The position numbers and the translations under genes were made by a program. The notes below the pieces were generated by a model, which worked only from the letters and a program-made list of their open reading frames with translations, did no database searches and was not told where the DNA came from. Of a stretch of 32,000 nucleotides of DNA, positions 8,353 through 31,147 are shown one piece after another (position 1 is the stretch's first letter; each line of letters starts with the position of its first letter). The stretch is from an uncultured Alphaproteobacteria bacterium (GTDB lineage Bacteria; Pseudomonadota; Alphaproteobacteria; Rhizobiales; Beijerinckiaceae), in contig CAVZAB010000025.1 of the NCBI GenBank assembly GCA_963773155.1, forward strand, positions 210,962-242,961, given 5' to 3'.

Positions 8353-8469
8353 TGGATGACCTTGCACTTTTCCGTTGAGGCATTTAGGCGCCAGGCCCGA
8401 TCGAGTTTCGCCTTTCTCTGATTGGGTCACTTGGCGCATGTTTCGACAGCGAATTGGGGTCGCCTGACA

Positions 8470-9493
8470 ATGCCAGCCTATCCGTTCTCCGCCATAGTTG
8501 CGCAAGAGACGATGAAGCTGGCGCTATTGATTGCTGCCGTTGACCCCTCCGTTGGTGGCGTATTGGTCTTCGGGGACCGCGGTACCGGCAAATCGACGGC
8601 GGTGCGCGCCTTGGCGGCTTTGCTTCCCAAAATGCGGGTCGTGAATAATTGTGCCTATAGTTGCGATCCTGGCAAACCTGCCGGCCTGTGCGGCGCGTGC
8701 GGTCCGGAGCGCAGAAAAAAGGATTTACCGAGCCATCTCGCACCCATTCCCGTCGTCGACCTGCCGCTGGGTGCGACCGAGGACCGGGTGATTGGCGCAT
8801 TGGATCTCGAGCTGGCGCTGGCCAAGGGCGAGAAGGCCTTTGAACCCGGCCTTCTCGCGCGCGCCCACCGAGGCTTTCTTTATATTGACGAGGTTAATCT
8901 TCTGGAGGATCACCTCGTTGATTTGCTGCTCGATGTCGCAGCCTCGGGCGAGAACGTTGTCGAACGGGAGGGTCTCAGTATTCGACACCCCGCGCGATTT
9001 GTCCTGGTTGGCAGCGGCAATCCAGAAGAGGGAGAATTGCGTCCGCAGCTGCTCGACCGATTTGGATTGGCGGTGGATGTCAAGACTTCCGGATAGCCTG
9101 GATGTCCGGGTTGAGGTCGTCAGTCGGCGTGACGCATATGACCGCGACCCGGCGGCTTTTTTGGCCAAATGGGACGGCAAGGATCGTAGTTTGCGGCGAC
9201 GCATCTCAGCCGCTCGGCAAAGGCTGGCCGCGGTCGATGTGCCTTTGCAGACGCTTCAGGATGCAACGAGACTGTGCATGGCGCTTGGGACGGACGGCCT
9301 TCGTGGTGAATTGACGTTGGTTCGCACGGCGCGCGCGCTAGCGGCCCTTGACGGGGACGAGACGGTCGAAGCGACGCATTTGCGGCGAATTGCTATACCG
9401 GCACTGTCGCATCGCTTGCGACGCAATCCATTGGATGATTCGTCGTCTGTCACGCGGGTTGAGCGCGCGCTTAGGGAAGTCCTCGGCCCATGA
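8470..9493 (+). pseudogene. bchI: Mg-chelatase ATPase subunit I, interrupted by a +1 frameshift near 9087-9088
   Basis: [20 protein letters not shown]...GDRGTGKST (Walker A)...[10 protein letters not shown] (Walker B)...[11 protein letters not shown], then a stop at 9094. The next frame continues [20 protein letters not shown]...GLRGELTLVRTARALAALDG...RRNPLD. Deleting one T of GACTTC (9084-9089) gives a continuous 340-aa BchI. Confidence 0.9.
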
Positions 9494-11298
9494 TGCCGCC
9501 AGAAGAAGCACGGCAACAATGGGCGGGCGATGCGACTTTGGCAGCCAAGCTTTTCGCCGTTGATCCGGTCGCAACCGGGATTGCGCTCAGGGCCGATGCC
9601 GGGCCGGTTCGCGATCTCTGGCTGTCGCAGTTGCGTCTCCTGGTCGGCTCAACTCCAATTCGACGGCTGCCGCTCAATATCAGCGACGATCGCTTGCTTG
9701 GCGGTGTTGATTTGACGGCAACTTTGCACGCTGGTCGGCTGGTCGCAGAGCGTGGCTTGCTTGCCGAGGCCGATGGCGGGATTGTTATCATGGCGATGGC
9801 GGAACGCGTGGCGCCGATGGCGGTCGCGCGGATCACCCGCATGCAAGACACGCGAAGCGTTGCTGTTGAGCGAGCCGGCCTTGGTCTCGTGCTACCCGCT
9901 CGGATCGGATTAATTGCCCTTGACGAGGGAATTGCCGCCGATGAGCGTCCGCCCGCCTCGCTTATGGATCGCCTGGCATTTCATATTGATCTAACTCAAG
10001 TCGCATTGGCGGATCTCGGCGAGCCTGGCTGCCGCCAGGAGATCGAAGCCGCGACAGACAGGCTGAGGACGCTAACCGCCGAGGCTGGCGCCGTCAGCGC
10101 ATTGTGTCGTGCCGCGATGAGCCTTGGCATAGCTTCGGTTCGCGCCCCGCTTTTTGCCTTGCAGGTCGCGCGTATTGCGGCGGCGCTGGCTCGCCGCTCA
10201 CGATTGGAAGCGCCAGATCTTGCGATCGCCGCGCGGCTCGTTTTGGCGCCGCGCGCGACGCGAGATCCCAGACAACAAACCGAGGAAGATGCCGGTCAAG
10301 CGCCCGAACAGGCCCAAAGTGAAGGAGAAGGTTCGGACATAGAGGGCGAGGCGGCTGACCAAAACCGTCAAGCGGATCGCGCTTGCGCAGCGCTTGCTGA
10401 TCTTGTCGTACAGGCCGCGGCCTCGGCACTGCCGCTTGGCCTGCTGAAGCAATGCGCGGGCGAGGGCATCCGGCATGCGAGAATGGCCAATGCCGGGCGG
10501 GCCGGTGCGTCGATGCGTTCGGCTCAGCGCGGGCGACCGATTGGGACAAGGAGCGGCCAACTCCGACAAGGACGGTTGAATATTGTGGAAACGCTACGTG
10601 CTGCAGCGCCGTGGCAGGCCCTGCGGCGACGCGAAGTGCAAACCCAAAACAACGGAACGAATATCGCTAGCGAAGGCCAGGGCCGCCTTCTGGTTCGAAC
10701 TGACGATTTTAGGTTGATCCGCTATGAGCAGCGCACGCAGACAACAACCATTTTTGCGGTTGACGCCTCCGGTTCCTCGGCTTTGCATCGTCTCGCGGAA
10801 GCTAAGGGCGCCGTTGAGCTGCTTTTGAATGATTGTTATGTCCGGCGGGATCATGTTGCGGTGCTCGCCTTTCGCGGCCAAGGTAGCGATTTGATTCTAC
10901 CGCCGACGCGCTCGTTGGTGCGGGCCAAGCGAGGCTTGGCCGGTCTGCCGGCAGGCGGTGCAACGCCGCTTGCCAGCGGTATAGCGGGCGCCACAGCGAT
11001 GGCGGAGAATATTCGTCGGCACGGGCACACGCCGATCATTGTGATTTTGACCGACGGACGGGCCAATATAGCGCGCGACGGAACTATGGGGCGGCCGCAG
11101 GCAATAGAAGATGCCCTTAGTGCTGCCCGCAATTTGAGGCAATCGGGCTGCACAACGCTGCTGATCGACACTTCGCCGCGGCCACAGGCTCTTGCCGAAC
11201 GTGTGGCGCGCGAAATGGGGGCCCGCTACCTGCCGCTTCCCTATGCCGATGCAACAAAATTATCGGAAGCGGTTCGGTTGGTTTCGGCTCCGGGTTGA
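9490..11298 (+). CDS. bchD: Mg-chelatase subunit D
   Basis: ATGA overlap with the bchI stop. It has an N-terminal AAA-like half, an acidic linker (EEDAGQAPEQAQSEGEGSDIEGEAAD) and a C-terminal vWA domain with MIDAS DASGS (FAVDASGSSAL). Confidence 0.9.
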   Translation: MMPPEEARQQWAGDATLAAKLFAVDPVATGIALRADAGPVRDLWLSQLRLLVGSTPIRRLPLNISDDRLLGGVDLTATLHAGRLVAERGLLAEADGGIVIMAMAERVAPMAVARITRMQDTRSVAVERAGLGLVLPARIGLIALDEGIAADERPPASLMDRLAFHIDLTQVALADLGEPGCRQEIEAATDRLRTLTAEAGAVSALCRAAMSLGIASVRAPLFALQVARIAAALARRSRLEAPDLAIAARLVLAPRATRDPRQQTEEDAGQAPEQAQSEGEGSDIEGEAADQNRQADRACAALADLVVQAAASALPLGLLKQCAGEGIRHARMANAGRAGASMRSAQRGRPIGTRSGQLRQGRLNIVETLRAAAPWQALRRREVQTQNNGTNIASEGQGRLLVRTDDFRLIRYEQRTQTTTIFAVDASGSSALHRLAEAKGAVELLLNDCYVRRDHVAVLAFRGQGSDLILPPTRSLVRAKRGLAGLPAGGATPLASGIAGATAMAENIRRHGHTPIIVILTDGRANIARDGTMGRPQAIEDALSAARNLRQSGCTTLLIDTSPRPQALAERVAREMGARYLPLPYADATKLSEAVRLVSAPG

Positions 11299-11313
11299 AT
11301 TTAGGATCTTCGG

Positions 11314-12201
11314 ATGATTGATGCCGATAGACCGGATTGGGCGCACGATGGTCGCGATTGGCCGCATCGACAGGCCAGTCAATTCGTTCGCGCCGGCGGC
11401 GTCCGGTGGCACGTGCAACGATTTGGGCAAGGGCCCGCCGCCCTTCTGGTCCATGGGACGGGTGCGTCGAGCCATTCTTGGTGCCGCCTCGCGGAATTGC
11501 TTGCCCAGCGTTTTACCCTTGTGATCCCGGATCTGCCCGACCATGGCTTCAGTGAAGCACCGGCCCATTACCGCCTGTCGTTGCCAGCGATGTCGGACGG
11601 TCTGCAAAAGCTTTTGAATGTTCTTGAAGTCAGTCCGGTGCTCGCGGTCGGGCATTCGGCCGGGGCAGCCGTATTGGCATCTTCCTGCCTTAAAGGGGCG
11701 ATTAAGCCTCGACTTCTGATAAGCGTCAACGGCGCCTGGTTGCCGTTTAAGGGGATCGCCGGCCAAATTTTTCCGTCGATTGCCAAGCTGCTTTACCTCA
11801 ATCCCTTTACTTCGCGCCTCTTTGCCTGGAGCGTCGATCGTTCAACGGTGCTGCGGCTGGTCGGGGAGACCGGATCGAGGATCGATGGGCAAGGTCTCGA
11901 ACTATACGAAAGATTGCTGCGGCGACCCGGGCATGTTGCGGGTGCCTTGGGCATGATGGCAAATTGGGATCTTGAGCCCCTGGTTCGACAGCTGGCTCAA
12001 CTTGAATTGCCAGTGATACTGCTTGCCGGAAGCAAAGACCGGTCGATACCTCCACAGGAGTCGCGGCGGGTTGCCGCCATGCTGCCGAACGCACGGGTGG
12101 AAATCCTGGAGGGCCTTGGACATCTTGCCCACGAAGAGCGTCCGAACGAGATCGCGGCCCTGGTCCTAAAACTTGCCGCCGAAGCGGGAATTATCGAATG
12201 A
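11314..12201 (+). CDS. bchO: Alpha/beta-hydrolase BchO (Mg-chelatase accessory protein)
   Basis: Canonical position after bchD. Alpha/beta-hydrolase motifs LLVHGTGASSHSW and nucleophile elbow GHSAG, with a C-terminal GHLAHEE. Confidence 0.8.
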   Translation: MIDADRPDWAHDGRDWPHRQASQFVRAGGVRWHVQRFGQGPAALLVHGTGASSHSWCRLAELLAQRFTLVIPDLPDHGFSEAPAHYRLSLPAMSDGLQKLLNVLEVSPVLAVGHSAGAAVLASSCLKGAIKPRLLISVNGAWLPFKGIAGQIFPSIAKLLYLNPFTSRLFAWSVDRSTVLRLVGETGSRIDGQGLELYERLLRRPGHVAGALGMMANWDLEPLVRQLAQLELPVILLAGSKDRSIPPQESRRVAAMLPNARVEILEGLGHLAHEERPNEIAALVLKLAAEAGIIE

Positions 12202-12245
12202 ATCAAGCCAGACCGGACTTGCCGTCATATCATTTACACTGCTAG

Positions 12246-12263
12246 TGTCCAACAATGCTGACA
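12246..12263. promoter_or_regulatory. PpsR/CrtJ-type palindrome candidate overlapping the crtI start codon
   Basis: TGTCCAACAATGCTGACA follows TGTC-N10-GACA. The crtI ATG (12255) lies inside the spacer. It sits in the 53-nt bchO-crtI gap. Confidence 0.35.
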
Positions 12264-13781
12264 CGTGTCACATATGCCCCGGCGGGCCCATTTGAACAAC
12301 GATCGTCGGCGGTCGTTATTGGGAGCGGGTTCGGCGGTCTTGCTGCAGCTATTCGGCTCGGTGCACGCGGTTATGCCGTAACGGTGCTTGAAAAGCTCGA
12401 TGCACCCGGCGGGCGTGCTTATGTCCACAAGCAGGACGGTTTCACGTTCGACGCTGGACCAACAATTGTAACAGCGCCCTTTCTGTTTGAGGAGCTTTGG
12501 CGCCTGTGTGGACGCAAATTCTCCGACGATGTCGAATTGCGGCCAATGGAACCGTTCTACCGGATCAGATTTCACGACGGCTCGCATTTTGACTACAGCG
12601 GCGATCGCGATGCGATGCGTTCGGAGATCATGAGAGTCTCGCCAGTCGACCTGCCCGGTTACGAAGCCTATATGCGCGAAAGCGCAGCCATTTATCGGAT
12701 CGGTTTCGAACAGCTTGGGCACGTATCGTTTGGTTCGCCGCTCGATATGCTGCGCATTGTTCCAGACCTTGTTCGGCGCCGAGCCTACCGCAGCGTCTTT
12801 GATCAGGTTGCCAAGCATATTTCGGACGAGAAGTTGCAGGCGGTGTTTAGTTTCCATCCGCTTCTCATCGGGGGTAATCCGTTCCGAGCGAGTGCCATCT
12901 ATTGTCTTATTGCCCATCTCGAGCAGAAATTTGGGGTTCATTTCGCAATGGGCGGAACGGGGCGCCTGATTGAGGGTATGGTGCGATTGATCGAGGACCA
13001 GGGCGGCATTGTCAGATACCGGGCGGAAGTTGAGAGAATCATAGTCAAGGATGGCGTCGCCCGCGGGGTTGAGCTTAGCGGGGGGGAGAGGATTCGCGCC
13101 GATATCGTCGTTTCAAATGCCGATTCCGCCTGGACCTATCGCTATCTTGTGCCCGCCGAATTGCGGCGGCGCTGGACTAACAGGAAACTCGATCGTTCGC
13201 GCTATTCGATGGGCCTGTTCGTCTGGTATTTTGGGACAAGCAAGATCTATCCCCGGGTTAAGCATCACACGATCATCTTGGGACGCCGATACCGCGAACT
13301 TATCGAGGACATTTTTGAACGTAAGATCCTCGCTTCGGATTTTTCTCTCTATCTGCACCGTCCGACCGCGAGCGATCCGTCTTTGGCGCCGGCGGGCTGC
13401 GACGCATTTTATGTCTTGTCTCCAGTTCCTAATCTCGGCGGTTCGATCGACTGGGTAGAGCGCTCAGACGAGTATCGCCAGGCGATTGCCCGGCAATTGG
13501 ATGATACCGAACTCCCAGGGTTTTTGCCGCACGTTGTTACATCGCGCGTCACAACGCCGCTCGACTTTCAAGATCGGCTTCTGTCTTACCGTGGCGCGGC
13601 TTTTGGCCTTGAACCGCTTTTGACCCAAAGCGCTTGGTTTAGACCCAACAATCGCAGCGAGGACGTCAAGCATCTCTATCTGGTCGGCGCCGGGACGCAT
13701 CCTGGGGCTGGACTGCCGGGGGTGCTGTCATCGGCGCGCGTCCTTGATATTGTGGTGCCAGATGCCGCCCTCTTCGCCTAA
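12255..13781 (+). CDS. crtI: Phytoene desaturase
   Basis: N-terminal FAD fold AVVIGSGFGGLAAAIRLGARGYAVTVLEK. The C-terminal motif is LYLVGAGTHPGAGLPGVLSSA. This is the only in-frame start after the upstream stop at 12243. Confidence 0.9.
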   Translation: MLTRVTYAPAGPFEQRSSAVVIGSGFGGLAAAIRLGARGYAVTVLEKLDAPGGRAYVHKQDGFTFDAGPTIVTAPFLFEELWRLCGRKFSDDVELRPMEPFYRIRFHDGSHFDYSGDRDAMRSEIMRVSPVDLPGYEAYMRESAAIYRIGFEQLGHVSFGSPLDMLRIVPDLVRRRAYRSVFDQVAKHISDEKLQAVFSFHPLLIGGNPFRASAIYCLIAHLEQKFGVHFAMGGTGRLIEGMVRLIEDQGGIVRYRAEVERIIVKDGVARGVELSGGERIRADIVVSNADSAWTYRYLVPAELRRRWTNRKLDRSRYSMGLFVWYFGTSKIYPRVKHHTIILGRRYRELIEDIFERKILASDFSLYLHRPTASDPSLAPAGCDAFYVLSPVPNLGGSIDWVERSDEYRQAIARQLDDTELPGFLPHVVTSRVTTPLDFQDRLLSYRGAAFGLEPLLTQSAWFRPNNRSEDVKHLYLVGAGTHPGAGLPGVLSSARVLDIVVPDAALFA

Positions 13782-14817
13782 CCGCCTCGCCGTCACCCCT
13801 GCTGATATTGCGACATGCCGGATTTCTATAAGAGACGGCTCGCACAGCTTTTACGCTGCATCGGCGCTGCTCCCGCAGGAGATTCGCACGGCCGCCCGCG
13901 GCCTATATGCTTTTTGCCGTCTTTCCGATGACGCGATTGATCTTGATGGAGGCTGCCTGGCTGCGTTCGAGCGCTTGCAGGAGCGACTTAATCGAATCTA
14001 TCAGGGGCGGCCCATGTCAATCCCTGCAGATCGAGCGCTCGCCGATATTGTCTACCGCTACGCAATCCCTCGCGCCCTGCCGGATGCCTTGCTCGAGGGG
14101 CTCGAATGGGACGCAAAGTCGCGACGTTATGAAGAACTCGCGGATCTCTTCGCTTACGCGACCCGCGTTGCGGGATCCGTCGGGGCAATCATGACTTTGA
14201 TAATGGGCGTGCGGGCGCCGGACGTTGTTGCGCGGGCCTGCGATTTGGGAATCGCAATGCAGCTCACCAACATTGCGAGGGATGTTGGTGAGGACGCTCG
14301 GCGAGGAAGGGTCTATTTACCTTTGCGATGGTTGAGGGATGCTAAGATTGATCCGGATGGGTTTCTTGCGGCACCTCAATTGAGCGATGCACTGCGCCAT
14401 GTTGTCCGGCGCCTTCTCAGAACTGCCGATACCTTATATGCGCGCTCCGAGGGAGGTATCGCGGGTTTGCCTATGGGCTGCCGGCCCGCGATCTATGCCG
14501 CCCGCTTCATCTATGCGGAGATTGGGCGGGAAATCGAACGCAATGGGCTCGATAGCCTATCAACTCGAGCGCACGTGTCGTCGAAAAGAAAAGCATGGCT
14601 CATTCTTGGCGCTGGAGTTGCGGCGCTGATTGGCAAGCCGGGACGGGCGTCGCCCTGTGTCGAGGAGGCGCAATTTCTGATCGAAGCTGTAAGAGCCTCG
14701 CATCAATCCGCCTGGACGACGCTCGACTTATCTCGGCTGCGGTGGTGGAACCTTGTCGGCCAGGTCAATTGGTTTGTTGATCTTGTCGAGAAGTTGGAGC
14801 GCCGCGAACAATATTGA
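13762..14817 (+). CDS. crtB: Phytoene synthase
   Basis: SHSFYAAS...LYAFCRLSDDAIDL...YAYATRVAGSVG...NIARDVGEDARRGRVYLP are squalene/phytoene synthase motifs. The start is either ATG 13762 or 13744, and both overlap the crtI 3' end. Confidence 0.9.
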   Translation: MPPSSPNRLAVTPADIATCRISIRDGSHSFYAASALLPQEIRTAARGLYAFCRLSDDAIDLDGGCLAAFERLQERLNRIYQGRPMSIPADRALADIVYRYAIPRALPDALLEGLEWDAKSRRYEELADLFAYATRVAGSVGAIMTLIMGVRAPDVVARACDLGIAMQLTNIARDVGEDARRGRVYLPLRWLRDAKIDPDGFLAAPQLSDALRHVVRRLLRTADTLYARSEGGIAGLPMGCRPAIYAARFIYAEIGREIERNGLDSLSTRAHVSSKRKAWLILGAGVAALIGKPGRASPCVEEAQFLIEAVRASHQSAWTTLDLSRLRWWNLVGQVNWFVDLVEKLERREQY

Positions 14818-14883
14818 TGTCGATCGGCGCACCGCCAATAGTCTCGGCAAGATTTGCCGGCCGGGTGGGCGAATTTGGCGGGC

Positions 14884-15171
14884 TCAATTAGAAATACGAG
14901 AATTGATCGGTCGGGGATAGAAACCGATGCGCTGGGCAATGTCGCCGATATGAAAGACCAAGCCGGCTAGAAGGCAAAGCGCTATATTGGCAAATGAGGC
15001 GCCCGTCAGAGCTTGGCGCAGCGCCAGCAGAAGGCAGGCGCCCGCCAAAAGATTAAAGGCGAGATCACGCCAGGCAATTCGTCGAAGCCAGGCGGACAAC
15101 ACGATGAATTCAATGGCGAGCAACAAAAGTATCGGGTCGACAAATTGTCCTCCCACGAGAAACACTGACAT
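14884..15171 (-). CDS. Small hydrophobic protein (about 3 predicted TM helices), unknown function, downstream of tspO
   Basis: ATG 15171 is preceded by GGAG at about 7 nt (the ORF-track start at 15183 is also possible). It reads MSVFLVGGQFVDPILLLLAIEFIVLSAWL...LLAGACLLLALRQAL...IALCLLAGLVFHIGD. I recognise no family. The coding call rests on its position in the operon and its hydrophobic periodicity. Confidence 0.45.
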   Translation of the reverse strand: MSVFLVGGQFVDPILLLLAIEFIVLSAWLRRIAWRDLAFNLLAGACLLLALRQALTGASFANIALCLLAGLVFHIGDIAQRIGFYPRPINSRISN

Positions 15172-15211
15172 ATTCGGCTCCATTATCGCATTTGGATCGC
15201 GCCATCGAGGC

Positions 15212-15701
15212 CTAGAAGGACGGGTTGAGTTGTACGACCGACCAGTTTAGCAAGGCGGCAAAAGAAACCCAGACGAGGTAGGCATAGAGCGAGGCGTGAT
15301 GCGTTTTTGGAGTAGCCCGCCAGAACGACGATTAGGACAAGAATTGAAAGCCACAGGAAAATGACCTCGAACAATGCCCAATCGGGCCGGCGCAGCCGAA
15401 AGAAAAGCAAGCTCCATAAGACATTAAGAAAACCGTTCAGGGCAAAAAGCGCGACCAGCCACTCGCGCGCGGAACGATTGGGAGCCTGGCGCCAGGCGGT
15501 AGCGGCGCTGAGGGCGCTCAAGGCGAAAATTATCGTCCAGGCCGGCCCGAAGAGCCAGTCCGGGGGCTTCCAGGCGGGGGTTTCCAATTCCTGATACCAA
15601 GGACCAAGATCGGTAATCGAACCTCCCAGGACTGCGACAAACAACGCGACGAAAAGGGCAACGAAAACCGGCAGCGCCCGCGACGCTGGCCTTGCATTCA
15701 T
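15212..15701 (-). pseudogene. tspO: Tryptophan-rich sensory protein TspO (CrtK), interrupted by a +1 frameshift near 15324-15330
   Basis: N-terminal part: ...WYQELETPAWKPPDWLFGPAWTIIFALSA...LNGFLNVLWSLLFFRLRRPDWAL... The ORF-track C-terminus (LAGYSKNASRLALCLPRLG...) is not TspO-like. The +1 frame reads FWRATPKTHHASLYAYLVWVSFAALLNWSVVQLNPSF* (stop at 15212-15214), which is the conserved TspO C-terminus. The corrected length is 162 aa. ATGA overlap with the bchP stop. Confidence 0.8.
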
Positions 15702-16900
15702 GGTGAGGCAAGTCCGAGAAGCTGGGCAAGATCCTTGAAAAAGATACGCATGTGCGCAACGGGTTTCCGTCGCACAAGTTCCTTGTTCATATAGGCTTCC
15801 CAGGTTAGCTTTTGCACGTCCTTGTCTTGACAGATGCTGACGAAACGTTCGCGCCGTCGGTCATTTTTGTACCAGAAATATTGCATGATTCCCAAAATCA
15901 GGAAGACCCGGCCATGGGCCCGGATGAATTTTTTGCGCGCCAGTTTCAATGCCTGGGGATTGCCGGTCGCAAGACAGGCATCGATGGCTTCGGCGGCCAA
16001 TTGGCCGCCCAGCATGGCATAATAAATCCCTTCGCCCGAGGCCGGCGCCACAATGCCAGCAGCGTCACCGGCCAGAACCACATTGCGGCCATTGTCCCAG
16101 CGCCGCATTGGCCGTAGCGGAATGGGCGCGCCCTCGCGGCGCAGCGTCTCCGATCCGTCAAGGCCAATTTTCAGCCGCAGGTCGCGGATCGCGCCGCGCA
16201 GCGAAAAGCCCTTGACGGCGCTGCCAGTGCCAATGCTCAGCGTATCGCCATGCGGAAAGACCCAGGCATAGAAATCGGGTGATAACGAGCCGCGATAATA
16301 GACATCGCAACGACGACCATCGAATTCCGCAGAACCGCTGCGCGGGGTGCGAACAATCTCGTGATAGGCAAAAACATACGGGATCTTGTCGGCTCCCTTC
16401 ACTGTTTGTCTAGCTACCGCCGATTTGGCGCCGTCAGCGCCGATGAGCAGGCGCGCATAGGCCCGCATCGGCGCACCATCGGTCTTCTGTCGGTAATGGA
16501 CGACCACTCCCTCGCCGCATTCGCTGATTTGCTCGAAATTCCCTTCGCATCGTACAGCGCCAGCCTCCGCCGCGCGATTTCGCAGCCATTCGTCAAAGAC
16601 GTCGCGGTCGACCATTCCAACGAAGCCGTCCTCGATTGGCATCTCGACCCGCCGCGATTGCGGGGAGATCACCCGGGCCGACGCAATTCGCGCCACAATC
16701 AACGCATCTGGAATAGCAAAATCACGAATGAGCCGAGGCGGTATTGCGCCGCCACATGGTTTGATGCGACCGGCTCTGTCGAGCAGGAGAACCGTGCGGC
16801 CGCGACGGGCGAGCGCGGTCGCGGCAGTCGCACCGGCAGGACCCCCGCCAACGACGATTGCGTCAAAGACGGTCGATTGGACGTCGGGCGACGGCGTCAT
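15698..16900 (-). CDS. bchP: Geranylgeranyl diphosphate/bacteriochlorophyll reductase
   Basis: FDAIVVGGGPAGATAATALARRGRTVLLLDRAGRIKPCGGAIP...VVLAGDAAGIVAPASGEGIYYAM. ATGA overlap with the upstream MFS gene. Confidence 0.9.
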   Translation of the reverse strand: MTPSPDVQSTVFDAIVVGGGPAGATAATALARRGRTVLLLDRAGRIKPCGGAIPPRLIRDFAIPDALIVARIASARVISPQSRRVEMPIEDGFVGMVDRDVFDEWLRNRAAEAGAVRCEGNFEQISECGEGVVVHYRQKTDGAPMRAYARLLIGADGAKSAVARQTVKGADKIPYVFAYHEIVRTPRSGSAEFDGRRCDVYYRGSLSPDFYAWVFPHGDTLSIGTGSAVKGFSLRGAIRDLRLKIGLDGSETLRREGAPIPLRPMRRWDNGRNVVLAGDAAGIVAPASGEGIYYAMLGGQLAAEAIDACLATGNPQALKLARKKFIRAHGRVFLILGIMQYFWYKNDRRRERFVSICQDKDVQKLTWEAYMNKELVRRKPVAHMRIFFKDLAQLLGLASP

Positions 16901-18277
16901 GCTTCAACCTCAATTCGCCCGCTCACGAGCTGGGCATCTCTGAGCAAGATACTTTCGCTGGTCCGCGACGGCGCCGCTCCCAACCGAAGCGCCAAAGCTC
17001 CGCCGATCAAGAAAAGGCCAGCTTGGCCGACAAAGACGACGCCATAGGCAAGCGCCGGTGGTTGAATCAATTGCCGGCTGATGTCGGCTGCTAACGTTCC
17101 GGTAAAGCCGCCAAGTCCAAAGGCCAAGGCCTGCGCGCCACCCCAAAGTCCTATTCTGAGGCCAGCACGTGCAGCACTATTGGTGCCTGCAAGTCCCATC
17201 ATCGCCCAAATTGCCGAGACTGCGAAGGTGCCGTTCGCAAGGCCGAGTGCAAATACGGACCTTTGAAGCGACCATGGCAGCTCGACTACGCCACCCAGCG
17301 CAATAACCAAGAGCATTGCCGCCGATGCGACGCATCCAAGAAAAGTCCACAGCCGCATCGACCCGAACCAGCGTTGGGCGAAGAGACTTGCGGTCACGGC
17401 GACTAGGAGCATTCCAACGAGAACACCGCCGTGCTGAGCCGAGGAAAGCTTGGTCGAATTCACCCGGCGTAAAATGAAAGACAATGCCGGCAAACGGCTC
17501 GAGGAGCAATTCCTGAGCGCTATAGGCCAACATGGACACAAAGACGAATATCGCAAATCGTCGGGATTGTGGCTCGTTCCAGACCTGACCGAGCGCTTCT
17601 CGAAAAGGCACTTGGCCGGAAGACGCTGGGCTGGAGGATATTTGGTTCGGTCGGGCGGGTAGCTTTCGAGCGAGCGAAGTCGACTCAATCTTCCAAACGG
17701 CAACAACCGTGACAAACAAGGAAAGACTGGCGACGATTGCGGTGATTGCAATCAAGCGGGGGAAGGAAAAGGGGTCGAGAAATTGTCCGGCCAGGTAAGC
17801 GGTTATCGCAATGCCGGCGATCATCATGATCCAGGTGATTGTCGCCGCGGCGGGCCGCCGGTCTGGCGCGACGAGTCCGGCCAGCAGAGTGAGAAGCGAG
17901 GTACCTGCCGCACCCACGCCGCCCCCAACCAGGATAAAGGCGATTATGGCCAGCCCCAGGCCGGCCATGGGATGGCTGGCGATCAGTGCCGCGGCAACGG
18001 CCGCGCTCAATCCCCCGCAAGCGAGAATGGCCATGCCTCCGATGATCCAGATTGTTCGACGGCCGCCGACATCGGACCCGTAGCCCCAACGAGGCCGCAG
18101 AACTTGCACGCCATAATGAAGGGCGACTAGACCGCCGGGAATGAAAGCAGGCAGCGCTAGTTCGACGACGAGGACTCGATTGACGACCGATGTCATCAAG
18201 ACAACGATAGCGCCGAGCGCAGTTTGCACCAGACCCAGCCGGACTATCCCGAGCCAACCAAGTTGGGCCGGTATCAT
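16897..18277 (-). pseudogene. PucC/LhaA-family (BCD) MFS protein at the Bch2/ORF428 position, interrupted by a +1 frameshift at 17456-17461
   Basis: MIPAQLGWLGIVRLGLVQTALGAIVVLMTSVVNRVLVVELALPA...LLLEPFAGIVFHFTPGE, then the frame is lost. The other frame continues STKLSSAQHGGVLVGMLL...GLWGGAQALAFGLGG... Deleting one base of GAATTC (17456-17461) gives 459 aa. The ORF-track start at 18316 is possible, but 18277 matches family N-termini better. Confidence 0.85.
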
Positions 18278-18322
18278 TGCGCGCCCCGAATTCAGCGCTG
18301 GGGGGGAAAAATCCATAATTTA

Positions 18323-18351
18323 AGAGTAAACTTGACACTCTATGTTGTCAA
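18323..18351 (-). promoter_or_regulatory. Candidate sigma70-type promoter for the MFS-bchP-tspO-orf95 operon
   Basis: On the minus strand: TTGACA (18346-18351), 17 nt, then TACTCT (18323-18328). The -35 is the 3' half of the PpsR palindrome. Confidence 0.4.
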
Positions 18352-18363
18352 TTAAGTTTGACA
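18346..18363. promoter_or_regulatory. PpsR/CrtJ operator (TGT-N12-ACA) between ppsR and the PucC-like gene
   Basis: TGTCAATTAAGTTTGACA has perfect 6-bp arms TGTCAA/TTGACA. An additional TTGACA arm lies at 18332-18337. Confidence 0.7.
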
Positions 18364-18368
18364 GACGA

Positions 18369-19841
18369 TCAGTTCCCACCGTCGCTTTCGCCGTCAAGGT
18401 CGCCAAGATTATAGCGATGCATTTTCGAATACAAACTCTGCCGGCTCAATCCGAGCATTTCGGCGGCAGAGGCACGATTGTCGCGCGTCAGTTGGAGCGC
18501 TGCCTCGATACACAGCCGTTCAATCATATCGGTCGCTTCGCGGATCAGGTCCTTAAGCGAAACCCGACCGACCAGTTCGGTAAATTGTGCGACCCAGGCG
18601 GGCGGCGGCTCACGCCCGGATGCATCGGCGGGCTGTGTGCGCCAAGCTCGCGTACGAAGAGTCAGGCCGACACAGGGCTGCGCACCGCCTGGTACTGCAA
18701 CTGCGGTGATTTCTACCTCTTCACTTGACCCATATTCACCGCGTACCATGCTTGCAAAATGGCGAACCGTGCCGTGTTCCCGCAAATTGGCCATGAGAAC
18801 ATCGACATCGACACCCACCCGTCCAACCCAACGCTCCAACAATTCGCCGCGCGCTTGTTCGACGCTCGCCAATTGTGCGAGATCGAGAAAGGCCGCATTG
18901 GCAGTCAATATCCGCCGATTGGGATCTGTGACCACAAAGCCTTCAGGCAGGCTGTCGATGACCGTTAAGAGCGCGGCGTTGGCTTTGGGCAGCGGTTGAT
19001 TTTCAACATTATGGGGAAACTGCGTCAACCGGACCAAGAAATAAGTCGCGCTCTCCTGGCGAAACAGCGAGGCTGAAAACCAAAACTGGTCTTTTTCACC
19101 GGCGAGTTTTGCCTGCACGTCGTCGGCCCGTCCGGTTGCCCGCACGCTGCCGAGTAAAGTTTGAACGGCCTGAAGGCTTTCCGGTTCGAAAAGGTCGAGA
19201 AAGGACAGTCCGTTTAAGCGTTTGGCGTCCCGATTCAGGATTCGGACGGCAACCGGATTGGCGTCGATCACCTTCTGGGTCGAAGCATCAACGATTAGGA
19301 CGGCTTCCGACGCCAATTGAAAGAGCAGACGATAGCGGGTCTCGGCGGCCCGTATTCGAGCATATTCACGCTCCATTGCCTGCTGGATCTCGATCAGGCG
19401 CTGCTGTAGGGCAGCCATCGCGCTCAGATCGCGGCCGACCGCCACTAGCCGTCCGTTCTTGCCGGCCTGAACAACCGAATATCTTATGGCTATGTCGCTG
19501 CCGCGCTTGGAGGGATGATTGACTTCGCGCCAGCGCGAGGTTTTGGCCTTGACGTCCTTAGCCGTCACCTCCTCGACCATTTCGCGGATCTTTTTGCGAC
19601 TTTCGGCGGTAACTGTGTCGATCCATGGCCGGCCCAACCAGGCCGCATAACCCTCCTTGGCCAGCAATTCACTGCTCAGAGAAATGTCTTCGATGATGCC
19701 ACGCCTATCGAGGACCAAGGCAATATCGGCTGCAGCCTCGATCAATTTTGCCGCATCCTCCGCCCCCAGATCACTGAAGGAGGTTCGCGGTGCAGTGAAA
19801 GCCTTTGCTTCATAGGGGGGCACGATTTGTAGAAGCGACAT
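18369..19841 (-). CDS. ppsR: Photosynthesis gene repressor PpsR/CrtJ (PAS domains plus C-terminal Fis-type HTH)
   Basis: The C-terminus NRASAAEMLGLSRQSLYSKMHRYNL is a Fis-type HTH. It has PAS-like repeats and the conserved position next to ppaA. ATG 19841 (MSLLQIVPP...) is preferred over GTG 19886, which overlaps ppaA. Confidence 0.9.
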   Translation of the reverse strand: MSLLQIVPPYEAKAFTAPRTSFSDLGAEDAAKLIEAAADIALVLDRRGIIEDISLSSELLAKEGYAAWLGRPWIDTVTAESRKKIREMVEEVTAKDVKAKTSRWREVNHPSKRGSDIAIRYSVVQAGKNGRLVAVGRDLSAMAALQQRLIEIQQAMEREYARIRAAETRYRLLFQLASEAVLIVDASTQKVIDANPVAVRILNRDAKRLNGLSFLDLFEPESLQAVQTLLGSVRATGRADDVQAKLAGEKDQFWFSASLFRQESATYFLVRLTQFPHNVENQPLPKANAALLTVIDSLPEGFVVTDPNRRILTANAAFLDLAQLASVEQARGELLERWVGRVGVDVDVLMANLREHGTVRHFASMVRGEYGSSEEVEITAVAVPGGAQPCVGLTLRTRAWRTQPADASGREPPPAWVAQFTELVGRVSLKDLIREATDMIERLCIEAALQLTRDNRASAAEMLGLSRQSLYSKMHRYNLGDLDGESDGGN

Positions 19842-19857
19842 AGATATCCATTTCTCT

Positions 19858-20757
19858 CTACGGACCGTGACGTTGCCTGGCGGCACCTTGTTGGGCCAGA
19901 ATTATTTGCTGGCCCAACACGACCGCGACTTGCCCGTCGGCGGCGGTAGCATCAGCGCCAATGAGGTTAACCAGCTCCGGGCGTTCCACAAACAATGGTC
20001 CGCCAACCAGGACGGCAATCGATTGATTTTGTGAGACCCGGCGAATGGCGCGAATCGCAGATGCCAGTGTCTCCAACATAGTTTCGCTGGCCAACGACAA
20101 ACCGACGATGGCAAACCATTCACGCTGGGCGAGTTCGACAACATTCCCGTCGCGATGGGCCGCGCCGAAAACTTCCCAGCCGGCGCTTCGAAAAAATTTC
20201 TCCACCATCTGAATACCGAATGTGTGCTGTTCACCAGGTGTTGGCATGAGCAAGATGCGCCGCCTCTCGTCAGGTTCCGCAATCTCCCCGGCGGCGCCGG
20301 GATCTAGCTCGTTGAGCAGCATGTGCAATCGGGACAATCCGACCGTTACGTCAAGAAAATTGCATAGGTCATTGTCCCACATTTCGCCCAAATGGCGCGC
20401 TGCCGGCGCCAGTAGGTCGAGCAGGAGAGCGTCAGTCGGTACGCCGCTTTCGCGCATTGCCTGAACGTAGCGGGTCGCCGCCGACAGATCCCGACCGACG
20501 ACCATTTGTGCGAGTTCAAGCACCTGGGCCTCGCCTGGCATCCTGACGTTTGGCGATGCGGCACTGGCGACCACCCGATAGGTCAACATTAAACGCGGTA
20601 GAATTTCCCCTTCAATAATATCCATCAAGCGCAATTGCCAATCGCTCTCGCGCTGGCCTGACCCGTTCCAAGGCTCCGCAACTGGCCTCCGTTGCGAATG
20701 TCTTTCCGCATTCAGCCAGCTAGTGTCTGGCTCGACGCATCGCCTGAGCTCCGCCAT
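19858..20757 (-). CDS. ppaA: Cobalamin-binding-domain antirepressor PpaA/AerR
   Basis: B12-binding-like module ILLMPTPGEQHTFGIQMVEKFFRSAGWEV...IVGLSLA...VLVGG. The N-terminal helical region contains DVTVGLSRLHMLL. It lies immediately upstream of ppsR. A strong SD (GGGGAGG) precedes ATG 20757. Confidence 0.8.
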   Translation of the reverse strand: MAELRRCVEPDTSWLNAERHSQRRPVAEPWNGSGQRESDWQLRLMDIIEGEILPRLMLTYRVVASAASPNVRMPGEAQVLELAQMVVGRDLSAATRYVQAMRESGVPTDALLLDLLAPAARHLGEMWDNDLCNFLDVTVGLSRLHMLLNELDPGAAGEIAEPDERRRILLMPTPGEQHTFGIQMVEKFFRSAGWEVFGAAHRDGNVVELAQREWFAIVGLSLASETMLETLASAIRAIRRVSQNQSIAVLVGGPLFVERPELVNLIGADATAADGQVAVVLGQQIILAQQGAARQRHGP

Positions 20758-20925
20758 TACTTACCTCCCCACGGCTGCACCCATTGTCGCCACTACCGCA
20801 TCGCAGCTCCTATCCTGCAATGGCAGCCTATGAGTAGATTCGCCAATTGGCCAGATGGCTGACAGCCTGCGCCTATCAAACCGCAAAATTTTCTTCTTGT
20901 AAATTCAAATTGACGTCCAATTATA

Positions 20926-20955
20926 TTGACAGTTGCGTGAGGGCCGCGGTAAAAC
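20926..20955 (+). promoter_or_regulatory. Candidate promoter for the bchFNBHLM-lhaA-puhA operon
   Basis: TTGACA (20926-20931), 18 nt, then TAAAAC (20950-20955). It lies 45-75 nt upstream of the bchF ATG, which has SD AGGAGGG. This is by-eye motif matching only. Confidence 0.25.
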
Positions 20956-20999
20956 TTTGGCCATCCCGGCGGAACTCTACGGCCAGGTAAGGAGGGACG

Positions 21000-22801
<1,802 letters not shown>

Positions 22802-22805
22802 GGCG

Positions 22806-24366
22806 ATGCAGCTGACGGTTTGGACCTATGAGGGACCACCACATGTCGGCGCGATTCGCATCGCAACCGCCATGGAAGGTCTCCACTATGTCTTGCATGC
22901 GCCGCAAGGCGATACCTATGCCGATTTGCTCTTCACAATGATTGAACGGCGCTCCAAGCGCCCGCCGGTCACCTATACAACCTTTCAGGCCCGCGATCTC
23001 GGCAGTGATACGGCAGAACTCTTCAAAACCGCGGTCAAGGAGGCCTATGAGCGATTTAGACCGCAAGCCCTGCTTGTTGGTGCGTCCTGTACTGCCGAGC
23101 TTATCCAGGACGATCCGGGCGGATTGGCGAAGGCCATCAATCTGCCCATACCGGTCATTCCGCTCGAATTGCCGGCCTACCAGCGCAAAGAAAATTGGGG
23201 CGCGTCGGAAACCTTCTATCGACTGGTGCGGACCCTTGCGCGTCCTGGGCAGACCAAGTCATCGCGCGCCGCGGGCGAACCGATAAGCTGCAACCTTCTC
23301 GGCCCAACCGCCTTGGGCTTTCGTCACCGCGATGATGTTCATGAAGTAACGGCATTGCTTGCAAAGCTCGGCATTGCGGTCAATGTCGTGGCGCCACTAG
23401 GGGCATCGCCAGCCGACCTTGGCCGACTGAGCGAAGCGGATTTCAACGTCGTTCTTTATCCCGAAATTGCCAGTCAGGCAGCGCAATGGCTGCAGAAAAC
23501 CTTTGGCCAGCCGAGTGTCAAGACGGTGCCGATTGGCATGGGCGCCACGCGCGAATTCATTAGCGAGCTCGCCAGTTTGGCGGGAGTTCGATCCGACGCC
23601 TGCGCTGACCTGCGCTGCGGCGCGATTGCCATGGTATTCGCGCTCTGTCGATTCGACCTACCTCACGGGCAAGCGGGTCTTCATTTTCGGCGACGCAACG
23701 CATGTCGTGGCGGCCGCCAGAGTTGCCGCCAAGGAATTGGGATTCGTCGTGGTTGGTCTCGGCAGCTATAGCCGTGAATTTGCGCGAGAGGTTAGGGAGG
23801 CGGCGAAGACTTACGGCATCGAGGCGCTTATCACCGACGATTATTTGGAGGTCGAAGCGCTAGTGAGCCAATTGCAGCCGGAGATTATCCTCGGCACCCA
23901 AATGGAACGTCACATCGCCAAACGGCTGGGGATCCCCTGTGCGGTCATTTCGGCGCCAATCCATGTCCAAGACTTTCCCGCTCGCTACTCGCCGCAAATG
24001 GGATTTGAAGGCGCCAATGTCCTCTTCGATACCTGGGTTCATCCATTGATGATGGGGCTTGAAGAGCATCTCTTGACGATGTTTCGGGATGACCACGAAT
24101 TTCATGACGAGGCGCCACCCTCGCATATCGGCCATGCCGTCCGGACGCCAAGGATACCCGAGGTTCCGGCCAATTCGTCACCGGTGCCACCCGCCAATGA
24201 AACTGCGGTCGCGTGGGCCGTCGAAGCCGAGAAGGAACTTAAGAAAATTCCCTTCTTCGTTCGCGGCAAGGCGCGCCGCAATACAGAGCGCTTCGCTTAT
24301 GATCAGGGCCTATCGATGATAACTGTGGACACGTTATACGATGCCAAAGCTCACTTCGGTCGCTGA
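22806..24366 (+). pseudogene. bchB: Light-independent protochlorophyllide reductase subunit B, interrupted by a +1 frameshift at 23584-23589
   Basis: [48 protein letters not shown]...[16 protein letters not shown], then the frame is lost. The next frame continues [38 protein letters not shown]...[18 protein letters not shown]. Deleting one T of GAGTTC restores 519 aa. Confidence 0.9.
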
Positions 24367-27300
24367 ACAAATTCCGATGCGCATTGTCATCGTGACAATG
24401 GATACGCTCGCCAGTGGTCTTGAGCGGGCGATCCGCAAACTAGAGAAGGATATCCCGGGCTTGCGCGTTAGCCTACATGCAGCCTGTGAGTGGAATACTT
24501 CTACTGAGGCGGTGCAGCGGTGCCGTAAAGATCTCGCCGAAGCCAACATCATTTTTGCTGGGATGTTGTTTCTAGAGGACCATTTCCAACCTATTCTTGA
24601 TACGCTGAGGGCGCGGCGCGACAATTGTGACGCGATTGTTTGTGCCCTGTCGGCGGCAGAGGTTGTGCGCCTGACGCGAATGGGTCGCTTTAGCATGGAT
24701 GGGGCGCAGGGCGGGGCGCTTGCTTTCCTCAAACGTCTGCGCGGTGAACGCAATAAGTCCGCCAGCCCAGGAGCGCAGCAGTTGAAAATGCTGCGCCGTG
24801 TGCCGCAGATCCTGCGTTTTATCCCGGGAGCAGCCCAAGATGTGCGGGCTTATTTTCTGTCTCTGCAATATTGGATCGGGGGCTCCGAAGAAAACATCAC
24901 CAATTTGCTGCGCATGCTTATCGACCGGTTCGCCGATGGTCCTCGCCGTCCTCTACGCGGAACGCTCAAGGTCGCGGCGCCAATCCAATACCCCGACGTC
25001 GGCGTCTACCACCCGCGCTTAAAAACTCGCATCGCGGATCGAGCCGATCAACTGCCGGCCGCGGGCAAAAACGGGACCGTAGGAAATCCTAATGCTACGA
25101 TCCTACTTACTGTCGGGAAATACCGCCCATTATGATGGGGTAATCGCAGCCCTTGAGAACCGCGGCCTGAACGTCATCCCGGCTTTTGCCAGCGGTCTCA
25201 ATTCTCGCCCGGCGGTCCAGCGCTATTTCATGACGGGCAACAGTGCCAAGGTCGACGCCGTCGTCTCACTCAGCGGCTTTTCCCTGGTAGGCGGTCCCGC
25301 CTATAATGACGCACGAGCGGCCGAGGAATTGCTCGCCAAGCTCGACGTGCCGTATATTTCTGCAGTCCCCGTTGAATTGCAGACCTTGGAGCAATGGGAA
25401 GGGTCCGAGCGCGGCCTCTTACCCGTTAAATCGACGATCATGGTGGCGATCCCTGAACTGGATGGGGCGACGGGTACCACGGTATTCGGCGGCCGTTCCA
25501 GTGAAGACGATACGAAAACCTCGCGCGACATGCGAGTTCATAATGAGCGTGCCAATAGGCTGGCCGAACGGGTTCTCAAGCTGGTTAAGCTTCGCCGTTC
25601 GGCCCGCGCGGATCGCAAGGTGGCGATTGTTCTATTTAATTTCCCACCCAATGCCGGCAATACCGGAACCGCAGCCTATTTGTCGGTCTTTGCCTCACTC
25701 CATCGCACAATGCAGGAATTGGCCAATTCCGGCTACCAGGTGGATGTGCCAGAATCGGTGGACGCATTGCGCGATCGTATTATCGGCGGCAACAGCATGC
25801 GTCTTGGCTGCCAAGCCAATGTCGTCGCGCGGATCGCCGTTGACGATCACATTCGTCGCGAGCGCTACCTGGGCGATATTGAAGCGCAATGGGGGCCAGC
25901 GCCGGGCCGCCAGCAGAGTGACGGTTCGTCAATCCTTGTGCTCGGTGAGCGCTTCGGAAACATCTTGGTCGGGATTCAGCCGGCCTTCGGTTATGAGGGC
26001 GATCCGATGCGCCTCTTGTTCGAGCGCGGTTTTGCCCCAACCCATGCCTTTTCGGCATTCTACCGCTATCTGCGTGAGGATTTCGGGGCCCACGCGGTCC
26101 TGCATTTTGGAACCCATGGTGCTCTGGAATTCATGCCGGGCAAACAAGTCGGCCTGTGTGAGGACTGCTGGCCGGAGCGGCTGATCGCGGATCTGCCGAA
26201 TTTCTATCTTTACGCCGCCAATAACCCGTCTGAGGGGGCAATTGCGAAACGTCGGTCGGCGGCAACACTGATCTCCTATTTGACGCCGCCGATTGCGCAT
26301 GCTGGCCTCTATCGGGGCCTGCTTGATCTCAAAGCCTCAGTGGAGAGCTGGCGCAAGCTGGCGCCGGATGCATGCGAGCGAAGCAGGTTGACGCAATTGA
26401 TCCAGTCTCAGGCTGCAGCCGTTGATCTTGCTGCGCTCGAACCTAGCTGGAGTGATGAGGAGGCCGCGGTCCGGATCGGGAGGATTGGCGAGCAAATTCT
26501 TGAGCTGGAATATACGTTGATTCCGCATGGGCTGCATGTCGTTGGTGAGCCGCTGTCGAGGGCAGAGCGAGTCGACATGCTCGTCGCTATAGCAGAATCC
26601 TCACACGCGACGCGGCTCGATCGGTTGGCGGCTGAGTTGCTGGTGGAAGGTGCGTCCGTGGACGCCGCCATGGCCGCCGCCAATTTGCCGCCCACCGCGG
26701 CGAATACTGCGATGTTGACAAGCCTTGCGCTGACCGATCGCATGCTGGGCGAGGATAGCGAAGTCAAGGCGCTGATTGCCGCTTTGGATGGACGCTTTAT
26801 CCGACCGGCGCCGGGCGGCGACGTCCTTCGAACCCCTGCCATATTGCCAACCGGTCGCAATTTACATGGTTTCGACCCTTTCCGGATCCCAAGTGCCTTC
26901 GCCATGAAGGAGGGCGAATTACAGGCTCAGCGTCTCATAGAGCGGCATATGTTGGACGGTCAACCATTTCCGGAATCGATTGCCATGGTTCTATGGGCGA
27001 CCGACAATCTAAAGAGCGAAGGGGGGCCGTTGGCGCAAGCCCTCGCCCTCATGGGTGCGCGGCCGCGCTTCAACTCGTTCGGCCGCTTGGCCGGTGCGAC
27101 TTTAATTCCTCTCGAGGAACTGGGGCGGCCGCGGATCGATGTGGTCATCACATTGTCAGGCATATTCCGCGACCTTATGCCATTACAGATCAAATTGCAT
27201 GCCGAGGCGGCCTACCTGGCAGCCTGCGCCGACGAGCCCGTTGACCGCAATTTTGTGCACAAACATGCGCTCGCCTACCAGCAACAGCATGGCTGCGATA

Positions 27301-28055
27301 TGGAAACCGCTTCGCTGCGTGTCTTCGGCAATGCCGAGGGAACCTATGGGTCCAACGTCAATCACCTGGTCGAAAACAGCCGTTGGGAAGACGAAGATGA
27401 ACTCGCCGAGACCTATACGCGGCGCAAGTGCTTTGCCTATGGCCGCTCGGGACGCCCGGTGCAGCAGGCGGCATTGCTGAATAGCGTTCTTGAGGACGTG
27501 CAACTGGCCTATCAGAATTTGGATTCCGTCGAGCTGGGCGTTACCACCATCAATCATTATTTCGATACGCTTGGCGGAATTAGCCGGGCTGTCAGGCGGG
27601 CCAAAGGTGGCGTTGAAGCGCCAGTATATATTGGCGATCAGACCCGCAGTGAGGGAACGGTGCGGACGCTCGCAGAACAAGTGTCGATTGAGGCCCGGAC
27701 CCGCATGCTAAACCCAAAATGGTATGAAGGGATGTTGAGGCATGGCTATGAGGGCGTGCGGCAAATTGAAGAGCACGTTACCAACACAATGGGTTGGTCG
27801 GCGACAACCGGGCAGGTTTCACCTTGGGTTTATAAGCAACTGACTGAGATCTTTGTTCTCGATGCTGAGATGCGTGAGCGTATGGCCGACCTCAATCCAA
27901 CTGCGTCGGCGAAAGTCGCAAGCCGGTTGCTTGAGGCGCATGAGCGGAAATATTGGACGCCGGATAAGGACATGCTTGAGGCGCTTCAGGAGGCCGGGGA
28001 AGACCTTGAGGATCGCCTGGAAGGCGTAGGTATCGCCTCCGCCGCGGCCGCCTAA
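24341..28055 (+). pseudogene. bchH: Mg-chelatase large subunit H, interrupted by a +1 frameshift at 25083-25088
   Basis: The first piece ends ...LPAAGKNGTVG. The next frame continues ILMLRSYLLSGNTAHYDGVIAALE...HFGTHGALEFMPGKQ...GRPRIDVVITLSGIFRD... Deleting one A of GAAATC gives a 1237-aa CobN/BchH-type protein. An alternative start is ATG 24377 (MRIVIVTMD). Confidence 0.9.
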
Positions 28056-29000
<945 letters not shown>

Positions 29001-29001
<1 letters not shown>

Positions 29002-29705
29002 TGCCGACCCTGACCTATAGCGAGCGACGCCGGCAGATCGAAACCTATTTCGATCGTACGGCCGTAGACGCTTGGGCGAGACTGACTTCTGACGCACCGG
29101 TCGGGCGTATTCGCGCGACCGTTCGTGAAGGCAGAACGCTTATGCGTGAGACCCTTCTTGATTGGTTGCCGCGAGATTTGCGCGGACAGCGGCTGCTGGA
29201 TGCTGGTTGTGGGACCGGTGCATTGGCGGTGGAAGCGGCGCGTCGAGGCGCCGATGTCGTCGCCGTCGATCTATCTCCGACCCTGATCGGGCTGGCGCGC
29301 GAGCGGGCGTCGAAGAGCGAGGGTTGCGGGAAGCTGGAATTTTGCGCTGGTGATATGCTCGATCCCGGACTGGGGTCCTTTGATCGCGTTGTCGCCATGG
29401 ACTCGCTGATCCATTATCCGGCGGTCGAAGTGGTGCGGATTCTGGCGGGTTTCGCCGAGCGGACCCGTGAATCGATTCTCTTCACTTTTGCGCCGCGAAC
29501 GCCGGCGCTCAGTGTGATGCATGCGGTGGGTCGGCTGTTTCCGCGACAGGATCGCGCACCGGCGATTGAGCCGGTCGGCGAGATGGCAATACTTGACCTT
29601 CTGAACCGGCAACGCGGCCTGAACAGCTGGCTTCCTTCGCGCACTCAGCGGGTGGCGCGCGGCTTTTATACATCACAGGCAATGGAATTGGGAAAAGATG
29701 CGTAG
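29001..29705 (+). CDS. bchM: Mg-protoporphyrin IX methyltransferase
   Basis: YFDRTAVDAWARLTSDAPV..IRATVREGR..MR..LLDWLP.DL.G.RLLDAGCGTGALAVEAARRGADVVAVDLS is a SAM-methyltransferase motif in the canonical position. TGATG overlap with bchL. Confidence 0.9.
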
Positions 29706-31147
29706 CTTGAGGCAAGGTGTGACGCGAGGCGTTATGCGCGGCTGGATGGCGTTGGGGCCGGGTTTCTTGCCGTTCGCGGATGTGGCGACGGAGGAACTAC
29801 CGCTGTTGCGGCTTTTGCGGCTGTCCCTTTTCCAAGTTTCGGTTGGAATGGCGGCCGTGCTGCTGATCGGTACTTTGAATCGGGTCATGATTGTGGAGCT
29901 GGGCGTTAGCGCGTCGCTGGTCGCGGTGATGGTATCCGTGCCACTCTTGCTGGCGCCGCTACGAACACTTGTCGGGTTTCGTTCGGATCATCATCGTTCG
30001 GTTTTGGGCTGGCGCCGTGTTCCCTATTTGTGGTTCGGCACTTTGTTACAGTTCGGCGGCTTGGCGATCATGCCTTTCGCCCTTATTCTATTGTCGGGCG
30101 ATAGCAATGCTCCGATGATTGTCGGCCAGCTTGCTGCAGCGCTGGCCTTTTTATTGGTTGGCGCCGGACTACACACGACCCAAACCGTTGGCTTGGCGCT
30201 GGCGACCGATCTTGCGCCGGCCCATGCCCAGACTAAAGTGGTCGTATTGTTGAGTGTTATGCTGCTGGTGGGCATGGTCGTTAGTGCCCTTTTCTTTGGT
30301 GCGGCGCTCGCCAATTTTAGTGAATTGCGCTTGATTCAGGTCGTTCAGGGATCGGCCCTGGCTACGATTGTCTTGAACGGCATTGCGCTTTGGAAGCAGG
30401 AGGCACGCAATCCCTCCCTCACGACAGGGGATCAACCTCTGCCTTCTTTCTCACAGGCGTGGCGGGATTTGAATCATGGAGCGGGGTCGAAATCGGCGGT
30501 TGATAGCGGTTGGCCTTGGCACGGCTGCTTTCAGCATGGAGGATATTCTACTTGAGCCCTACGGTGGGCAGATCTTGCATTTGAGCGTCGGAACAACGAC
30601 CAAGCTCACCGCGCTTCTGGCGGTAGGTGGCCTTACGGGGTTTGTGATCTCGGCTCGCTGGCTTAGTCGAAATGCGGATCCTTATCGTCTGGCCGCGTTG
30701 GGTGTCTTGTTCGGGCTAGCGGCGTTCTCGGCCATTATTTTTGCCGCCCCACTCGGCTCGGCCTGGCTATTTGCCGCAGGAACGGCGTTGATCGGCCTTG
30801 GCGGCGGGTTGTTTGCGGTTGGTACGCTGACTGCGACAATGCGGCTTGCTGCTGGCAATCAGACAGGTCTGGCGCTTGGCGCGTGGGGTGCGGCGCAAGC
30901 TTCCGCGGCCGGTTTGGCGATTGCGCTGGGCGGCATCATCCGCGATGGCGTGAGCGAACTGGCGGCGCGCGGGCTGCTCGGGCCGGCGCTTAACGATGAA
31001 GTCACCGGCTATAGCGTGGTTTATCATCTTGAAATCTTATTGCTGTTTGCGACGCTTGTTGCCATCGGCCCACTCGTTCGTCATGCGAACGCAGGCCTCG
31101 GCAGATCAAGGCCGGGATTGGGACTCACTGAAAACCCGGCACGATAG
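29698..31147 (+). pseudogene. lhaA: LH1 assembly MFS protein LhaA (PucC family), interrupted by a +1 frameshift within 30473-30497 (best fit GAAATC 30489-30494)
   Basis: LPFADVATEELPLLRLLRLSLFQVSVGMAAVLLIGTLNRVMIVELGV...SQAWRDLNHGAG, then the frame is lost. The next frame continues NRRLIAVGLGTAAFSMEDILLEPYGGQILHLSVGTTTKLT... The corrected length is 482 aa. It lies in the canonical position between bchM and puhA. Confidence 0.85.

Follow-up and report, generated by a model that had tools for sequence, protein, structure and literature searches.

The 32,000-nucleotide stretch of DNA analysed here (the window; positions 210,962 to 242,961 of contig CAVZAB010000025.1, assembly GCA_963773155.1, from an uncultured member of the Beijerinckiaceae) carries a photosynthesis gene cluster (PGC) in which seven genes, bchI, tspO, a pucC-like gene, bchB, bchH, bchL and lhaA, are each interrupted by one extra base. 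Very probably these frameshifts are not mutations but consensus errors of native-DNA long-read sequencing at methylated GANTC sites, accompanied by ordinary indel errors. An artefact is favoured because the insertions are associated with GANTC, the orthologous genes are intact in relatives, no relaxation of selection is observed, all seven lesions are +1, and a further lesion occurs in the flank of the cluster. Judging from the sequence, the photosynthesis cluster is best regarded as intact and functional. The split genes are an issue of annotation and quality control; they are no new biology and not a biological feature.

Single-base insertions in seven genes

The original prediction that a single +1 insertion splits each of seven genes is borne out by open reading frame (ORF) pairs, tblastn frames and nucleotide alignments, which agree with each other. 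The joint span of the two overlapping ORFs has length 1 mod 3 in all seven genes. When the proteins of a relative with 88% identity were used as tblastn queries, every gene was recovered as two abutting matches in frames offset by one base; the junctions in bchL and lhaA are less sharp than the others (Table 1). In pairwise nucleotide alignments with relatives, in which every gap was listed, one extra base of the window was observed at each of the seven sites, and no other uncompensated single-base insertions were found inside genes. Deletion of one base per gene restores single ORFs. The repaired junction sequences are family-typical, e.g. GTVGILMLRSYLLSGNTAHYD in BchH, where P0244 reads ...GTVGILMLRSY....

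Table 1. Frameshift lesions in the window. ORF pairs are from the ORF list; extra bases are set in brackets; the last two columns give protein lengths in amino acids (aa).
Gene	Span	Strand	ORF pair	Lesion and repair	Extra base in alignment	tblastn junction	Base removed in repair	Repaired	Relative
bchI (Mg-chelatase subunit I)	8470..9493	+	8422-9096 and 8792-9493	extra T in GACT[T]C, 9084-9089; repair GACTC	9088	9087/9089	9088	340	340
tspO	15212..15701	-		extra base 15290/15291, plus-strand GAGC[G]AGG	15291	15291/15289	15291	162	162
pucC-like MFS gene	16897..18316	-	17177-18316 and 16897-17751	extra A in GA[A]TTC, 17456-17461; relative has GATTC	17457	17459/17457	17457	472	485
bchB (DPOR subunit B)	22806..24366	+	22806-23771 and 23467-24366	extra T in GAGT[T]C, 23584-23589; repair GAGTC	23585-23589	23588/23590	23588	519	516
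bchH (Mg-chelatase subunit H)	24341..28055	+	24341-25135 and 25092-28055	extra A in GA[A]ATC, 25083-25088; repair GAATC	25084	25084/25086	25085	1237	1237
bchL (DPOR Fe protein)	28095..29001	+	28092-28820 and 28675-29001	extra A in GA[A]CTC, 28717-28722; repair GACTC	28718	about 28718-28720	28719	301	301
lhaA (LH1 assembly factor, PucC family)	29698..31147	+	29698-30555 and 30476-31147	extra A in GA[A]ATC, 30489-30494; repair GAATC	30490	about 30485-30492	30490	482	482
ion channel gene with cNMP-binding domain	1180..2438	-		-1 lesion in G5 run, 2402-2406; repair by one added G	 	 	 	419	419

The extra base of tspO had been placed at about 15327, and both the alignment to the relative and tblastn move it to 15290/15291. 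The run of five T at 15304-15308 was considered as the site of this lesion and is ruled out by the same alignment. The gene appears as a 172-aa ORF on the minus strand (15183-15701), the tail of which is not TspO-like, the true C-terminus being in the other frame. In bchB, the extra base is ambiguous by alignment alone: removal of the T gives G-V-D, as in the relative, and removal of the A gives G-F-D.

The repaired lengths given in the original prediction were reproduced for six proteins. The pucC-like protein has 472 aa from the first ATG and not 459 aa, a figure that presumably rests on another start codon. The region 17607-17665 of this gene is variable: the relative has 39 net extra bases there, apparently imperfect tandem copies (GGCTGGCAGAGGTTT-like). 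The difference, which is in frame, accounts for the 472 aa in the window versus 485 aa in the relative.

Neither stops nor deletions, insertion sequences or other mobile elements were observed in the seven genes, either in the alignments or by tblastn. The distance from the lesion to the next stop varies from 2 to about 130 codons. The neighbouring genes bchD, bchO, crtI, crtB, bchP, ppsR, ppaA, bchF, bchN and bchM, which had been described as intact, align with the relative without a change of frame; the end-truncated puhA, named together with them, lies outside that comparison.

The called proteins of the deposited NCBI/ENA contig, which is 309,412 bp long, include two BchH fragments of 987 and 264 aa that are split exactly as in the window, and thus the frameshifts are present in the deposited assembly. 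The same contig encodes a BchD identical to that of the window (P0121).

Association of the insertions with GANTC

Six of the seven insertions are situated in a GANNTC hexamer that turns into GANTC when the A in position 2 or the T in position 4 is dropped. In all six cases it is the methylatable A, or the T complementary to it, that is duplicated, and never the central N, the G or the C. Deletion of a base yields GANTC at 510 of the 32,000 window positions (1.6%). The probability of observing at least six such cases among seven by chance is 1.1e-10, or 1.7e-6 with a five-fold positional slack.

The alphaproteobacterial methyltransferase CcrM acts on GANTC and produces N6-methyladenine (m6A). 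The window contains 65 GANTC sites versus about 151 expected (ratio 0.43, z = -7.3), and the motif is also depleted in the relatives, at 0.39 and 0.55 of the expected number. Eight control motifs were compared; six of them occur at 0.84-1.25 of expectation, the other two being CTNAG (0.76) and TCNGA (0.72). Under-representation of GANTC has been described in CcrM-encoding Alphaproteobacteria (Gonzalez et al. 2014, PMC3973325). The depletion of the motif makes it plausible that the GANTC adenine is methylated in this organism by a CcrM-type enzyme.

Two other candidate determinants were considered. An extended TCGANTC context is not supported, as TC also precedes 17 strand-sites of intact GANTC. 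Homopolymers as the cause at all sites were rejected, as six sites lie in runs of only one or two identical bases. False pseudogenes created by homopolymer indels in long reads resemble the present case in that single-base indels hit conserved genes and can be repaired from homologues. However, with six of the eight lesions in the window, that of the flank included, lying in such short runs, it is the motif and not the run length that predicts a lesion.

One possibility is that the errors arose during assembly or polishing independently of methylation, for instance by strain-mixture consensus or over-polishing, and that the link to GANTC reflects some other sequence bias. Motif-independent indel errors do occur in the window, namely in tspO and in the G5 run, and only about 8% of the GANTC sites are affected. 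This explanation would leave the choice of the duplicated base, always a methylatable A or its complement, unaccounted for, and we see no reason for GANTC to be singled out by strain mixing or generic polishing. We consider it very improbable.

Relatives, selection and the flank lesion

With the repaired BchH as query, two JGI metagenome proteins (P0001 and P0002) of 1237 aa that are 94% identical to it were retrieved from a large protein collection. The relatives' contigs, L081 and L082 together with L083 for the left part, have the same gene order as the whole window and about 88% nucleotide identity to it. At the orthologous loci, the seven genes are single, uninterrupted ORFs in L081, L082 and L083; in particular, L083 encodes an intact 340-aa BchI, and its alignment with the window has a gap at 9088.

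This lineage is poorly sampled: the cluster together with its flank was seen in only two JGI metagenome contigs, from samples 3300069203 and 3300069122. In GTDB representative genomes, the nearest BchH among the matches listed is 72% identical, and thus too distant for base-level comparison. No match to relatives of the PGC was found in the plasmid collection. No same-strain copy was found in metagenome contigs with an exact pattern for the bchH site allowing both GGAATCC and GGAAATCC. The members of the cluster that stem from assemblies of short reads (Logan, JGI) are relatives with 91-94% amino acid identity and not the same strain.

Comparison with the relative yields dN/dS ratios of 0.014-0.15 downstream of the lesions and 0.010-0.20 in the upstream halves, versus 0.07-0.18 in intact neighbours and flank genes. 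No relaxed selection is observed downstream of the lesions; an event of near-zero age is still compatible with these values.

An eighth lesion was found by alignment to the relative in the 8.4-kb flank, which the original prediction had considered free of lesions. It is situated in the ion channel gene (Table 1) and puts the conserved start, MVTRPKSWFGR (ATG at 2438), and the gene body in different frames; addition of one G at 2402-2406 restores a protein equal in length to the orthologue of the relative. The ORF remains open, at 446 aa, to an upstream ATG at 2520, and for this reason the lesion was overlooked earlier. Hence the claimed absence of deletions holds for the seven genes and not for the flank. 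The lesion is a classic long-read homopolymer under-call, a textbook case of its kind, in a gene unrelated to photosynthesis. Thus lesions also occur outside the PGC, and they may well be independent of gene function. This lesion is of the homopolymer type, unlike the six GANTC-type lesions; the latter affect none of 20 GANTC sites in the flank versus six of 51 in the PGC (Fisher p = 0.17).

If the insertions were real and very recent, Mg-chelatase, DPOR, LH1 assembly and TspO would have been lost via seven independent +1 mutations. Such an event would have to produce the association with GANTC by chance (about 1e-10), and no mutational process that duplicates the adenine of GANTC is known to us. 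Moreover, hits following the first knockout should be neutral and therefore mixed, including deletions and stops, whereas only +1 lesions are seen in the seven genes; the longer homopolymers of these genes, natural sites of slippage, are spared; and the unrelated flank gene has a typical homopolymer error. On the other hand, the lesions do stand in the deposited sequence, no orthogonal data contradict them, and the absence of decay also fits an extremely recent event. On balance, we regard real insertions of this kind as very unlikely.

A variant of this explanation is that CcrM-methylated GANTC is itself a hotspot of real +1 duplications, caused for example by mis-repair at m6A or by HinfI-like nicking, and that the whole cluster was silenced almost at once in one lineage. 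This variant seems even less probable.

Genuine decay of the PGC in former phototrophs likewise interrupts several bch and light-harvesting genes within one cluster. Such decay involves lesions of several types, loss of genes and a relaxation of selection. In the window, in contrast, the seven genes have only +1 lesions, synteny with the relatives is complete, and dN/dS is low on both sides of the lesions.

The perfect preservation of both halves of each gene could also be explained by programmed recoding, if full-length proteins were produced by ribosomal +1 frameshifting or by transcriptional slippage. The one-base offset between the halves of a functional ORF is indeed reminiscent of +1 frameshifting of the prfB type. 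However, the lesions have no conserved shift site and no shared slippery heptamer; their contexts differ, with GANTC as the sole shared element. There is no upstream arrangement of a Shine-Dalgarno-like element and a hungry codon, the runs of A or T at the sites are at most three bases long, and the distance to the next stop is variable. A conserved site would be shared with the relatives, whose ORFs are uninterrupted at every site. Programmed recoding is the least probable of the explanations considered, and close to negligible.

Given the GANTC association, the dN/dS values and the flank lesion, the simultaneous knockout of Mg-chelatase, DPOR and LH1 assembly envisaged in the original prediction is very unlikely, and the other branch of that prediction, an artefact with an annotation in need of repair, is strongly favoured.

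Proposed origin of the frameshifts and consequences for annotation

The methylation-linked consensus errors proposed above could have arisen as follows. The source would be a metagenome-assembled genome based on single-molecule long reads of native, unamplified DNA; the platform would most likely be Oxford Nanopore, possibly PacBio. The modified base would be called twice at about 8% of the GANTC sites, producing GAANTC or GANTTC, and within genes the duplicate call would result in a +1 frameshift. The insertion in tspO and the -1 lesion in the G5 run would be indel errors of the ordinary kind within that assembly.

Related errors have been described. In Nanopore assemblies of Brucella, methylation-linked errors were observed at GANTC (PMC12392509). 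In agrobacteria, most single-nucleotide polymorphism errors of assemblies were at methylated motifs including GANTC, and fewer remained with methylation-aware basecalling (PMC12710330). On one nanopore platform, native reads had more substitutions and insertions than amplified reads (bioRxiv 10.64898/2026.01.14.699587).

Errors of native-DNA Nanopore sequencing at methylation motifs (GATC of Dam, CCWGG of Dcm, GANTC of CcrM, and motifs of restriction-modification systems) recur in or beside a short methylated motif, as the lesions do here. Also as here, they hit a fraction of the sites, survive consensus and polishing, and are mostly in coding regions. Unlike the candidate errors in the window, which would be one-base duplications of a modified adenine leading to frameshifts, they are mostly substitutions.

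Several observations weigh against this explanation. The published methylation-linked Nanopore errors that we found are mainly substitutions (A to G and G to A), and no paper was found in which the methylated A of GANTC is reported to be duplicated; this is where the mechanistic detail is weakest. No ccrM gene is present within the 32,000-nt window. The 65 GANTC sites of the window are uncorrupted, so that only six of 71 sites (about 8%) are affected, and no extended context separating hit from unhit sites was found in the window. The tspO lesion is the only one of the seven outside the GANTC context, and it is not in a homopolymer either.

Taken at face value, the deposited sequence would lead to an organism of a phototroph lineage being mislabelled as non-phototrophic, and to the genes of Mg-chelatase, DPOR, LhaA, the PucC-like protein and TspO being called pseudogenes. 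For long-read genomes of Alphaproteobacteria, it follows as a rule of quality control that a frameshift at GAANTC or GANTTC is to be regarded as a methylation artefact and corrected before conclusions on metabolism or pseudogene load are drawn.

Three minor features were observed in the comparison with relatives. In the spacer between bchH and bchL, just upstream of the bchL start, the window has a 14-base insertion (28066-28079). A 23-base insertion (5253-5275) was found at the junction of the stop of an ABC-transporter gene and the start of a cNMP-binding gene; the start codon of the latter appears to be displaced by it, as the body of this gene is conserved from 5269 on. Lastly, a hydrophobic ORF of 99 aa is located on the minus strand between crtB and tspO (14884-15183). 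It is conserved at the same place in the relatives (100 aa, 77% amino acid identity), where no Pfam hit is recorded for it, and may encode a small membrane protein of the photosynthesis cluster that has escaped annotation.

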